Shown: positions 9,001 through 12,000 of the stretch, piece after piece
How the letters are laid out: every line of letters starts with the position of its first letter
Numbering within the stretch: the stretch's first letter is position 1
Source of the DNA: a bacterium
Lineage (GTDB): Bacteria > Patescibacteriota > Minisyncoccia > Phycocordibacterales > JAGLPS01
Assembly: GCA_030690305.1 (NCBI GenBank)
Contig: JAUYHB010000013.1
Coordinates: 5,221 to 69,220 of the forward strand
Direction: 5' to 3'
DNA: 64,000 bases
Position numbers: made by a program

Positions 9001-12000
9001 CTACAGCTTTGAACTTTCCCTGTTCCGTTTGGAAAATCAGGTCATCGTGGTCTTTTCGCGCGACTGGCCTGTTCGTAGGAATTGGAAGAACAGGCAGACC
9101 GTATACTTTATAAAATTCTTCCGCAGACGTGAGCGCGGTACCCGTCATTCCAGAAAGTTTTTTATACATTCGGAAGTAATTTTGGAACGTGATGGAGGCA
9201 AATGTGCGCGATTCTTTTTGAATGGCAACTCCTTCTTTCGCTTCAATCGCCTGATGAAGGCCCTCGGACCACCTTCTTCCCGGCTGAAGTCTCCCCGTAA
9301 ATTCGTCCACTATGATGACCTCCCCGTCGCGGACGACATATTCTTTGTCATTGGTAAAAAGGGCTTTTGCTTTAACCGAAAGTTCAAGATGGTGCACGTA
9401 TTTCATTCCCCGTTCCGTATAAATATTCTCAACACCAAGAATTCTTTCCGCATTTGAAATTCCCTCGTCGGTAAGAGTAATGGCTTTCAATTTCTCGTCA
9501 ACCGTATAATCCGGTCCTTCTTTGAGCGATTGTGCAAGCCGGGAAAATGTTTGGTATAGGTTTTCTGACTGAGATGTGGGCGCTGAAATAATGAGAGGCG
9601 TACGGGCTTCATCAATAAGAATCGAGTCGATTTCATCGACAATGGCATAGTGGTACTCGCGCTGTCTTAGGCGTGCCGTATCGACTTCCAGATTATCGCG
9701 CAAATAGTCGAAGCCGAATTCATTGTTCGTGCCGTAAGTGACATCCGCCGCGTACGCTTCTTTTCTGCTGCATTCGCGGAGAAAATCGTAAACAACTTTA
9801 AATGAACCCACTTCATCGCGGGTCTCGTCTTTTTCCTTATGTGCTGGGTCGTACAGGTATGATTTTTCATGATTGATGACTCCCACCGAAAGACCGAGGG
9901 CGGCATATATTTGACCCATCCACACTGCGTCGCGTCTCGACAAATAATCGTTGACCGTTACCACATGCGCACCTTTTCCCTCAAGGGCATTGAGATAGGT
10001 CGGAAGTGTCGCGACAAGTGTTTTTCCTTCTCCCGTTTTCATTTCGGCAATACTTCCTTTATGAAGGACGATGCCCCCGAGGAGCTGAACGTCGTAATGG
10101 CGTTCGCCGAGCGTTCGTTTCGCCGCTTCCCGCGTTACTGCAAACGCCTCGGGAAGGAGGGAGTCAAGTGTTTCCCCTTCCGTGATACGGCTCTTAAATT
10201 CATCAGTTTTTGCTTTAAGTTGGTCGTTTGTAAGGGGAGAGATTGAACTTTCAAGCTCGTTAATTTTTGAAACAAAAGGGCGCAAAGCATCAAGCTCGCG
10301 CGCTTCTCTCGAACCGAACAACCCCTGTAAGGAAAACATGATAAAAGAAACTTTAACACAAAATAGGCTTCGTACCAAACAACCAAACGCAAAACCCATC
10401 TGTCTTAGGCAGATGGGTTTTGACAAGCGTTACGGAGAAGAGAAAACTAACGTCGTCTCTTTTTTGCTGCTTTTCTCTTTACAGTCTTTCGCTTCTTAGC
10501 AGCCTTTTTCTTTTTTTTGGCCATTTGTATTGCGCGACCCGTCGCTAATTACGACTGATCGTGATTACTGCTAAACGCTTAATAGTGCGTGATCTCGAAA
10601 TTTTATTTCAGTTGAAGAAACAAATTTCTTACGACCTTATATTAATTATCGTATATGCGAATGGACAACACAATGTTTTTTCTTGTACAAAGTGTTGATA
10701 ACTGCAATTACTTAAAATCACCGATAAAACATACTTCCGGTTCAAGGATAACACCTGTTTTTTTTCTGACAGAGTCAATGACAAAATCACTCATTTCCTT
10801 TATTGCCAAAGATTTTGCTCCACCAAGGTTGACTATTGCAAGAGGTTGTCTTTCATAAAGACCCACAGAGTCTTTCTTGAATCCTTTTAGTCCGCACACA
10901 TTGTCCAGTATCCATGCTGTTGGAATTTTTTTCTCGCCGGAAACAAGGGAAAACATGGGCATTGCCGGAAAACTCTTTTGCAATATGTCGGCCTCTTTTC
11001 TTGAAAGAATAATATTTTTAAAGAAAGAACCTGCTGTTCCGTATTGATCAAGCGGAGGAAGTTTTTTTGAACGAATATCAAGAATGATGCGGCGGATGTC
11101 CGAAACGTCTGGATTTTCTATAGTGTGTTCCGCAAGATATGTCCGTATGTCTCGATAGGAGGTTAAGAGCGGAGCCGTTTTTGTTAAGAGAAAAGTGACT
11201 GACAGTACGACGAGGCCGCTGCCTTTCTTTTTTTTAAATATGCTACTGCGATATGAAAGCTCACATTCTTCCGGTGAGAGGGAAAAAATCTTGGCCGATT
11301 CAATGTCAAAAACTTCAACACTAAACAGTGTGTCTTTTATTTCGGTTCCATACGCTCCAATGTTTTGGACGGGTGCCGCACCGACAGTCCCCGGAATGCC
11401 CGATAAATTTTCAATGCCGTGAAGACCTCTAGAAACACTTTCTGAAACCAGAGAATCAAAATGAACTCCCGCGGCGGCGGTTACCAGCGTGGTATCGGCA
11501 TCCTTCGTTTTGAAATGAATCCCGGAAGTTGTTATTTTTATAACAAGACCGGGGAAACCGCTGTCGGAAATCAAAATATTTGAACCCTCCCCCAAAATTA
11601 AAAAAGGAATTGATTCTTTTTTTGAAAAAGAGAGAGCCGTACGGATGTCATCAAGGGAGAGTGCCTCGGCAAAATAACGCGCCGTTCCCCCGCTTTTGAA
11701 TGTATTAAACGATGCGAGAGAAATATCTTCTTTGATAAAAAGCATGGACTGGGGACGTCACGTCCGTTCATGACGGGCGGGGCTAGCTCCAAAAATGTCT
11801 ATTGTGAGTGCGACCGCCCGTCGTGAACGGGCACGACAGAGTATATAGAGAATAGTAACAAAAGCCTCCTTACAAACGCAAACCCCCTCCGAAGAGGGGG
11901 CTTACGCAGACATTCTTATTTGGTAGCTAGCGCTTACACGCGCTCACAGACCATACAGTAGCATACTTTGCAAAAAAACACAAGCTAGGGATTTCTACCT

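Follow-up and report, generated by a model that had tools for sequence, protein, structure and literature searches.

A predicted Lys/Arg/Ala-rich microgene between murB and secA in Patescibacteria, with a candidate DnaA box at its promoter and a possible polycation as its product

Does a very short open reading frame (ORF) that consists mostly of lysine and arginine codons and lies just upstream of secA regulate that gene, or is it a gene in its own right? The question is raised by a stretch of 64,000 nucleotides from a bacterium of the Patescibacteriota (Minisyncoccia; Phycocordibacterales; JAGLPS01), which is called the window below and corresponds to positions 5,221 to 69,220 of contig JAUYHB010000013.1 in assembly GCA_030690305.1. 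A reading of the sequence alone had offered two answers, i.e., a translational attenuator in the secA leader, analogous to the SecM arrest peptide, or a gene for a tiny basic ribosomal protein of the bS22 or bTHX kind. From the comparison with related loci described here, the ORF is very probably an independent, translated, and conserved gene, for which we use the term microgene. The best overall explanation of this microgene, to which we give an even chance of being correct, is that it encodes a polycation resembling histone H1 tails or protamines, which is possibly under the control of DnaA.

The mini-ORF is located on the minus strand and runs from ATG (10524–10522) to TAG (10449–10447), thus comprising 25 codons and the stop codon (10447..10524) with the translation MAKKKKKAAKKRKTVKRKAAKKRRR; the coordinates, the number of codons, and the poly-Lys/Arg character reported in the sequence-only reading are all borne out. 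Codon by codon, it reads ATG(10524) GCC AAA AAA AAG AAA AAG GCT GCT AAG AAG CGA AAG ACT GTA AAG AGA AAA GCA GCA AAA AAG AGA CGA CGT TAG(10447). The predicted peptide contains 12 Lys and 5 Arg residues and has a mass of 3.0 kDa, an isoelectric point of ~12, a net charge of about +16.5, and a grand average of hydropathy of −2.2, whereas its non-polar residues are limited to five Ala and one Val, without any hydrophobic stretch. Lys and Arg account for 68% of the residues, and Lys, Arg, and Ala for 88%. Among the 1269 ORFs of 12–120 aa in the window, this is by far the richest in Lys and Arg; the runner-up among those of at least 20 aa reaches 45%. With a composition this extreme and with equivalent ORFs at the equivalent place in 17 further loci, the mini-ORF is more than a product of chance.

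The closest relatives of the window SecA were sought in 185,579 species genomes and the Joint Genome Institute (JGI) metagenomes, and a total of 160 loci were fetched. The nearest relatives are metagenome-assembled genomes (MAGs) of Patescibacteria (Paceibacteria, Kaiserbacteria, and similar lineages), whose SecA is 60–68% identical to that of the window. A Lys/Arg/Ala-rich mini-ORF on the secA strand is present in 18 loci including the window, mostly between murB and secA, at SecA identities of 51–68%; no such cassette was found in the loci from outside the candidate phyla radiation (CPR), to which the Patescibacteria belong. The predicted peptides vary widely in length, namely 25 aa in the window and, with L-numbers denoting the fetched loci, 25 (L001), 31 (L002), 16 (L003), 37 (L005), 76 (L007), 65 (L008), 37 (L009), 21 (L010), 18 (L081), 106 (L082), 22 (L084, with a GTG start), 20 (L085), 14 (L086), 34 (L087), 13 (L088), 19 (L090), and 20 aa (L091). 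Each copy has the same parts, i.e., a promoter, a 5′ untranslated region (UTR) of 40–170 nt, an A-rich start ATG GCN without a Shine-Dalgarno (SD) sequence, the ORF beginning with MA(A)KK, and an intrinsic terminator. The microgene and its regulatory signals have thus been kept across genomes in which SecA itself is only 51–68% identical.

Several features at the level of codons argue for translation. In all 18 loci, the purine tract is bracketed in one frame by ATG or GTG followed by GCN at its 5′ edge and by the stop codon at its 3′ edge. The Lys codons of the mini-ORFs are AAG in 71% of cases, versus 35% in the flanking genes and long ORFs of the same loci (Fisher p = 1e-30); the excess is seen in 18/18 loci, and runs of A never exceed 8. 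In the window, AAG makes up 58% of the Lys codons of the mini-ORF, compared with 20–26% in the other genes. A preference for AAG is expected from selection against ribosome sliding on iterated AAA (PMC4363877), and this third-position bias, which has no meaning for a non-coding tract, therefore points to translation. Additionally, the 106 aa homologue of L082 (2045–2365) is composed of tandem repeats with units of 15, 18, 33, 36, and 105 nt, all of which are multiples of three (the 36-nt unit is repeated 6.1 times at 91% match and the 105-nt unit 1.9 times at 96%), which shows a recent repeat expansion within the family. The peptides of the window and L001 also resemble each other in residue order and not just in composition, with a similarity (z = 4.1) above that of 99.95% of composition-matched shuffles. 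On this evidence, translation of the ORF is inferred with good support.

The signals around the mini-ORF would make it a transcription unit of its own. The predicted microgene promoter (10645..10673, minus strand) comprises a −35 element TTGTGT (10673–10668), a spacer of 17 nt, and a −10 element GATAAT (10650–10645). A consensus scan misses it, with a −35 element that matches at only 3/6 positions; the assignment of the promoter thus rests on conservation across loci, and in the strict pattern the TTGnnn-16/17-GATAAT architecture is kept in 12/17 of them. When the same promoter pattern was run as a control on viral contigs, it gave 45 chance matches, none of which led to a Lys/Arg mini-ORF. 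The predicted 5′UTR (10525..10638, minus strand; ~113 nt) is A-rich and contains no SD sequence before the ATG. Since an SD-like motif precedes just 4/37 genes (long ORFs) in the window, where start contexts are A-rich, its lack before the mini-ORF is normal here, and the organism seems to initiate translation largely without SD pairing.

A short motif recurs within the 5′UTR. In the window, GGTCG is found at 10636–10632, at the predicted transcription start, and again at 10539–10535, and GGTCG(A/G) is present in the 5′UTR of 14/18 loci with a density of 6.0 per kb versus a background of 0.49 per kb (~12-fold). Its distance from the −10 element varies among loci. RNAalifold yields no consensus RNA structure around GGTCGA in the 5′UTR, and an Rfam search of 9800–11200 at E ≤ 1 returned no match except one meaningless snoRNA hit. 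This element may be an operator or a processing site.

Downstream of the stop codon, a predicted intrinsic terminator (10375..10422, minus strand) is formed by a hairpin with a 13-bp stem and a 7-nt loop (10422–10390) and by a T-rich tail (10389–10375), CGTTTGGTTGTTTGG. The stem consists of 12 perfect base pairs (AAAACCCAUCUG/CAGAUGGGUUUU) and a closing C-G pair, hence 13 pairs, and as RNA the hairpin reads CAAAACCCAUCUG-CCUAAGA-CAGAUGGGUUUUG. It begins 24 nt past the stop codon. The perfect hairpin and U-rich tract described earlier are thus present, although the stem of 11 bp and the gap of 25 nt given for them need correction to 12–13 bp and 24 nt. A terminator scan scores the hairpin as terminator-like; the stem by itself folds with −18.5 kcal/mol, and inclusion of its flanks brings the value to −20 kcal/mol (z = −3.6 versus shuffles). 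A GC-rich hairpin followed by a T tract lies 3′ of the stop codon in 17/17 folded loci and was read by eye in L010, and across the family the terminator stands 0–30 nt from the stop. The pyrimidine-rich stretch past the stop does not pair significantly with the purine-rich ORF (mean z = −0.65). The conservation of mini-ORF and hairpin in related genomes, which the sequence-only reading had named as a check, is therefore found in 17 further loci. As judged from these signals, the interval 10701–10375 of the minus strand is a self-contained, conserved, monocistronic unit of promoter, UTR, ORF, and terminator that is separate from secA.

The gene order around this unit is conserved as murB, microgene, (hpf), secA. 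The upstream neighbor in the window is murB (10708..11745, minus strand; NCBIfam NF000755 MurB), followed on the minus strand by a spacer of 183 nt, the mini-ORF, the hairpin, and secA (7874..10339, minus strand; NCBIfam NF009538 SecA, 1073 bits), and tblastn of MurB against the loci places murB upstream in at least 11 of 18. The gene hpf, which encodes a ribosome hibernation factor, lies between the microgene and secA in L009 and L090 and occupies 2229–2654 in L010. This suggests murB, microgene, hpf, secA as the probable ancestral order, with hpf lost or moved in the window. A contig with identical murB and mini-ORF occurs in Logan assembly L161 (SRR26726065), where the public annotation misses the mini-ORF.

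The microgene has indeed been invisible to annotation, being below the length limits of gene callers and without a family in Pfam or NCBIfam. In a collection of 15 billion proteins, an exact look-up of nine family peptides, namely that of the window and eight homologues (L084 and seven of L081–L091 were not queried), found none of them present. A word-seeded HMMER search with the 76 aa homologue in 5.8 billion proteins gave 8000 word candidates and no match at E ≤ 0.01; the low-complexity correction defeats HMMER for such sequences, and the wider distribution of the family is for this reason not mappable by protein search. The literature on polycationic, histone-like, and nucleoid proteins of CPR/Patescibacteria and on CPR ribosome structures was also consulted, and no description of such a gene was found. 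The gene thus appears to be new in that it is covered by no family model and by no CPR literature found, is far smaller than H1- or protamine-like proteins, and has a distinctive DnaA-box promoter. What would be familiar is its mode of action, which resembles, without demonstrable membership, either that of an H1/protamine-like polycation or that of a microprotein of the bS22/eL41 kind.

A DnaA-box-like site makes the promoter region distinctive. In the window, the DnaA-box-like 9-mer TTATCAACA (10693..10701, minus strand) differs by one mismatch from TTATCCACA and lies 19 nt upstream of the −35 element. Across the family, (A)GTTATCCACA is the one block of strong conservation ahead of the promoter, in forward orientation, 17–20 nt upstream of −35 and centered near −60. 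Matched against TTATCCACA at the corresponding site, the box is perfect in 10/18 loci, has one mismatch in 5/18 (including the window) and two in 2/18, and is absent in L009. The flanking and spacer sequences are not conserved, which indicates that the box itself is under selection. Among the 160 fetched loci, GTTATCCACA occurs in 11, and in 8 of the 11 it holds the position upstream of the promoter.

DnaA, for which TTATCCACA is the consensus box, is known to act as a transcription factor (PMC8203912, PMC11317965). Analogous to DnaA-regulated promoters such as those of dnaA, nrdAB, and others, in which the consensus 9-mer TTATCCACA lies near a sigma-70-type promoter (PMC8203912, PMC11317965), the box of the microgene is close to such a promoter. 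It differs from them in that there appears to be a single candidate box at a fixed position of about −60, that the presumed target is a polycation microgene, and that the organism is uncultivated. The argument for DnaA comes from the relatives, as the one-mismatch box of the window is not significant by itself. Whether DnaA is the factor that uses the box is, in our estimate, evenly balanced.

What, then, might the product do? Of the 599 codons in the 18 orthologues, 46% specify K, 21% A, 13% R, 6% each T and V, and 4% P, and none specifies D, E, H, Q, C, F, Y, W, L, or I. Recurrent features of the peptides are an N-terminus MA(A)KK and a C-terminus rich in Arg (KKRRR, KKRR, RKRR), between which the middle part can expand freely. 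The Arg cluster, which in the window occupies 10450–10461, is often encoded by CGA CGN just before the stop. The 25-mer has no match in Pfam or NCBIfam (E ≤ 1 to 10) or among PDB chains at E ≤ 10, and six longer homologues gave nothing significant. The only family matches, those of the 34 aa and 76 aa homologues, are to the histone H1-like models Hc2 PF07382, NF038052, and NF038053 with E = 0.24–0.65; the scores of 10–12 bits are far below the cut-offs of these models (40, 80, and 135 bits). The Lys/Ala/Pro-rich repetitive composition and the polymorphism in repeat number by which H1-like proteins are recognized are both found in the family.

A likeness to H1-like polycations is therefore apparent at the level of composition and growth. 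Hc2 and Hc1 of Chlamydia, the H1-like proteins of Burkholderia and Bordetella, AlgP of Pseudomonas, the C-terminal tail of mycobacterial MDP1/HupB, eukaryotic H1 C-terminal tails, and protamines are, like the microgene peptides, rich in Lys, Ala, and (Pro, Thr, Val), of low complexity, and devoid of acidic and bulky residues, and length polymorphism through in-frame tandem repeats is shared with Hc2, AlgP, and the MDP1 tail, which also vary in repeat number. DNA binding and condensation have been described for MDP1 with its disordered region (PMC10810275, PMC5974015), and H1 tails have been treated likewise (PMC11331069); by analogy, the electrostatic binding and condensation of DNA by a disordered polycation would be expected of the microgene product. 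Contrary to the H1-like proteins, the microgene peptides are 5–20 times smaller (13–37 aa in most loci), lack a folded DNA-binding domain, show no significant homology at 10–12 bits against cut-offs of 40–135, have a DnaA-box promoter, and, among the loci compared here, are confined to a Paceibacteria-like clade.

We propose the following mechanism. The product would be an intrinsically disordered Lys/Ala/Arg peptide of 3 kDa with a charge of +16.5 in the window, belonging to a family in which composition is conserved and length free (13–106 aa), with growth by in-frame repeats. Such a peptide may bind polyanions electrostatically and without sequence specificity, thereby neutralizing charge or condensing nucleic acids. 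The chromosome would be the primary candidate target, as for the C-terminal tails of H1, protamines, chlamydial Hc2, and the MDP1/HupB tail; with a conserved DnaA box, it is also the most economical one. Through the upstream box, the supply of the peptide could follow the status of DnaA and hence of replication. We give slightly less than an even chance to the view, drawn from composition, that the peptide is a polycation for nucleic acids in general and acts mainly on DNA. A bolder version, which we regard as doubtful, holds that a clade of ultra-small CPR bacteria possesses in it the smallest known chromatin-type protein (13–37 aa, rarely to 106), which would resemble a protamine or H1 tail, would be wired to DnaA via the conserved box, and would serve as the main macromolecular counter-ion that compacts or neutralizes the chromosome, possibly replacing polyamines or larger nucleoid proteins in cells of minimal volume. 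If the product is a nucleoid polycation, it would provide a synthesizable handle on the packing and neutralization of DNA in very small CPR cells, tied to DnaA.

Several observations weigh against the nucleoid polycation and its control by DnaA. The box of the window carries a mismatch, and 9-mers with one mismatch are barely enriched in the window (24 found, ~16 expected). A single box could also serve another factor or owe its conservation to something other than transcription. The close relatives L004 and L006 have no gene between murB and secA, so the microgene may be dispensable or relocated. The conserved termini, i.e., MAKK at the N-terminus and KKRR at the C-terminus, hint at some specificity. 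Finally, the 25 aa of the window peptide equal the length of eL41, its 68% of Lys and Arg is comparable with that of the Borrelia bS22, and hpf, a gene for a ribosome-associated function, is adjacent in L009, L090, and L010.

The last of these points lead to the main rival, which is that the peptide is a tiny ribosomal or ribosomal RNA (rRNA)-bound protein of the bS22/eL41/mS38 or bTHX kind and forms a basic helix in an rRNA pocket, e.g., around 16S h2/h27/h44/h45. We consider this rather unlikely. The Borrelia bS22 offers a precedent, as a protein of 30 aa with 61% Lys/Arg that had been unannotated, is an essential candidate, and fills a structurally conserved pocket of the 16S rRNA; it has an analogue in the 25 aa eL41, and the authors who discovered it expect others of its kind to turn up (PMC10618245). 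More generally, bS22 (Mycobacterium, Bacteroidia, Borrelia), eL41, mS38, and bTHX are, like the microgene product, tiny (25–33 aa), composed of 60–70% Lys and Arg, usually unannotated, and probably helical on RNA (PMC10618245). A monocistronic and, by its signals, apparently strongly expressed gene of the housekeeping type with a good terminator would also suit a ribosomal role.

Against this role stands the free length of the family, in which orthologues from the same locus range from 13, 14, and 16 aa for the shortest to 65, 76, and 106 aa for the longest, with growth by tandem repeats. The three known bS22 proteins have 30–33 aa, and Borrelia bS22 shows one substitution (K10Q) across three Borrelia groups (PMC10618245). 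Free length is typical of H1-tail-like polycations and would be unusual for a peptide with a defined rRNA pocket to fill. The His, Leu, Ile, Met, Asn, and Gln positions found in bS22 and eL41 are likewise missing from the family, whose 599 codons include none for His, Leu, Ile, Asn, or Gln and 21% for Ala; unlike these proteins, it has no conserved length, no His or hydrophobic anchor positions, and no helix-bend motif. The database searches described above gave no ribosomal match either, and there was no hit to the Thx family models. In a shuffle test of five family peptides against the bS22 of Borrelia (Bbu), Fjo, and Msm, eL41, and THX, with provisional sequences for eL41 and THX, none exceeded the shuffles (z ≤ 1.3; for bS22, z = −2.1 to 1.3), and the comparison with Thermus THX gave z = −2.0 to 0.15. 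However, the bS22 test is of low power, as the known bS22 proteins are barely alike among themselves (range of z 0.55–1.1; Bbu versus Msm z = 0.55), and with proteins so divergent the absence of similarity is weak evidence. Of the earlier suggestion of a tiny basic ribosomal protein gene, the independent, conserved, and probably translated small gene thus survives, whereas the identity with bS22 or bTHX finds no support in profile or PDB matches, in order-specific similarity, or in the length range of 13–106 aa, and in composition the family is closer to an H1 tail than to bS22. Were the peptide bound to the ribosome after all, no lineage-specific ribosomal microprotein would have been proposed before it for the CPR bacteria, which are known to have reduced ribosomes.

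An episymbiotic way of life is typical of CPR bacteria and counts in favor of a further alternative, namely that the polycation is delivered to a host as a cell-penetrating or antimicrobial agent. Grouped with it are the possibilities that the target is another polyanion, such as polyphosphate, RNA condensates, or membrane or cell-wall polymers, or that the act of translation is what matters. The extreme charge and the free length would suit any electrostatic partner, and the C-terminal clustering of Arg and the GGTCGA motif conserved in the 5′UTR are two further features in need of an explanation. Nevertheless, the peptide lacks a signal peptide as well as any amphipathic or hydrophobic face, Val being its only hydrophobic residue; the cassette contains no secretion or immunity genes; and the DnaA box suggests a link with the chromosome cycle. 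We therefore rate this group of explanations as improbable.

The remaining proposal of the sequence-only reading, the attenuator, requires that secA be transcribed through the hairpin, and the start of secA is relevant here. The start at 10339 given in that reading is backed by homology, as MFSLQGLFG aligns with MAFLSGLFKG and MSVLTKIFGD of relatives. The public call in L161 starts secA at an ATG equal to window position 10399, inside the hairpin and 20 codons ahead of the homology-supported start. A separate secA promoter is predicted at 10350..10378 (minus strand), with TTGGTA (10378–10373), a spacer of 17 nt, and an extended −10 element TGtTAAAGT (hexamer 10355–10350), and this −10 element ends 10 nt before the ATG at 10339. 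In most related loci, a −10 hexamer, often extended by TGn, stands 6–13 nt before the ATG of secA, e.g., TGGTAAAAT, TGCTACAAT, TGCTAGAAT, and TGCTAAAAT, and the same arrangement is found in L004, L006, and L083, which have no microgene. With its own −10 element so close to the ATG, secA is therefore expected to be transcribed separately, and its mRNA appears to be leaderless or near-leaderless throughout the clade. Whichever product the microgene has, the analysis thus corrects a mis-set secA start, points to a near-leaderless secA in the group, and defines a promoter architecture for an uncultivated phylum.

In the form considered here, the ORF and hairpin would attenuate secA in cis, either by SecM-like arrest or by a terminator switch that senses Lys/Arg-tRNA or poly-lysine stalling, so that read-through of the hairpin tunes secA. 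The window has the geometry of short ORF, terminator, and secA; secA is the next gene on the same strand in 15/18 loci (hpf intervenes in L009, L090, and L010); and in several loci the stem starts less than 15 nt after the stop, where a terminating ribosome could in principle interfere. Analogous to SecM, VemP, MifM, and RAPP-type arrest peptides, the short ORF immediately precedes a gene for protein export (PMC12992588 on the class). The microgene differs from these in lacking a targeting segment, an arrest motif, and a design for co-transcription, and an intrinsic terminator and a separate secA promoter would intervene. As there is neither a hydrophobic signal or transmembrane segment nor an arrest motif, the peptide cannot report on Sec activity. 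No antiterminator was found for the hairpin: with its 3′ arm left out, the 5′ arm gains just 0.1 kcal/mol from upstream pairing, compared with −18.5 kcal/mol for the terminator itself. In relatives, ~50 to >400 nt separate the mini-ORF terminator from secA, with hpf or other sequence between them, and the inverted cassette of L010 faces away from secA and converges on murB, with no downstream gene. Structures that sequester an SD sequence are absent in an organism that hardly uses one, and AAG-biased codons lessen stalling rather than favor it. A SecM-like arrest peptide was rejected for its lack of a signal or transmembrane segment, for the terminator and separate promoter between ORF and secA, and for the inconstant downstream gene; a leader attenuator of the trpL/hisL type was rejected for its lack of a competing structure and for a downstream position held by secA, hpf, or nothing, with secA and hpf each having its own promoter. 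Both models fail because the tested features contradict them. The translational attenuator of the secA leader is accordingly given up, and as a cis-acting regulator the unit is highly improbable, this explanation being already largely refuted by the comparison of loci.

Least credible of all is an untranslated ORF, i.e., a purine-rich non-coding RNA or a promoter/terminator spacer whose openness is a by-product of A/G-rich, stop-poor sequence. In its favor, purine-rich tracts tend to stay open in more than one frame, many loci are open in the +1 frame as well, and the peptide is in no protein database. Against it, the start and stop remain at the edges of the tract in the same frame in every locus, AAG is preferred over AAA in a frame-specific manner opposite to the preference of the genome, the repeats are multiples of three, MAKK and KKRR are kept while the nucleotides diverge, and neither an Rfam family nor a conserved structure is found.

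The spacer between murB and secA was also considered as a replication origin (oriC) and rejected, since it has a single box, no cluster, and no clear skew switch at 10.6 kb; the sole perfect TTATCCACA of the window (38722) falls within a coding ORF. In L010 (540–900, minus strand), which belongs to a Sungiibacteriota MAG, the region upstream of the inverted microgene is shared with a divergent ATP-grasp gene and carries four DnaA-box-like 9-mers in 250 nt, one of them perfect (in reverse orientation). Around 14100–14400 of the window, no cluster of DnaA boxes was seen; gene orientation switches there from minus-strand genes on the left to plus-strand genes on the right, with overlapping ORF ends and a weak change in the sign of the GC skew. 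On the other side of secA, an ORF of 323 aa resembling NDP-sugar (nucleoside diphosphate sugar) dehydrogenases (6970–7941, minus strand) overlaps the 3′ end of secA by 68 nt; it matches only positions 68–297 of the 413 of the profile, which leaves a wrongly placed start or a truncation of the gene as explanations.

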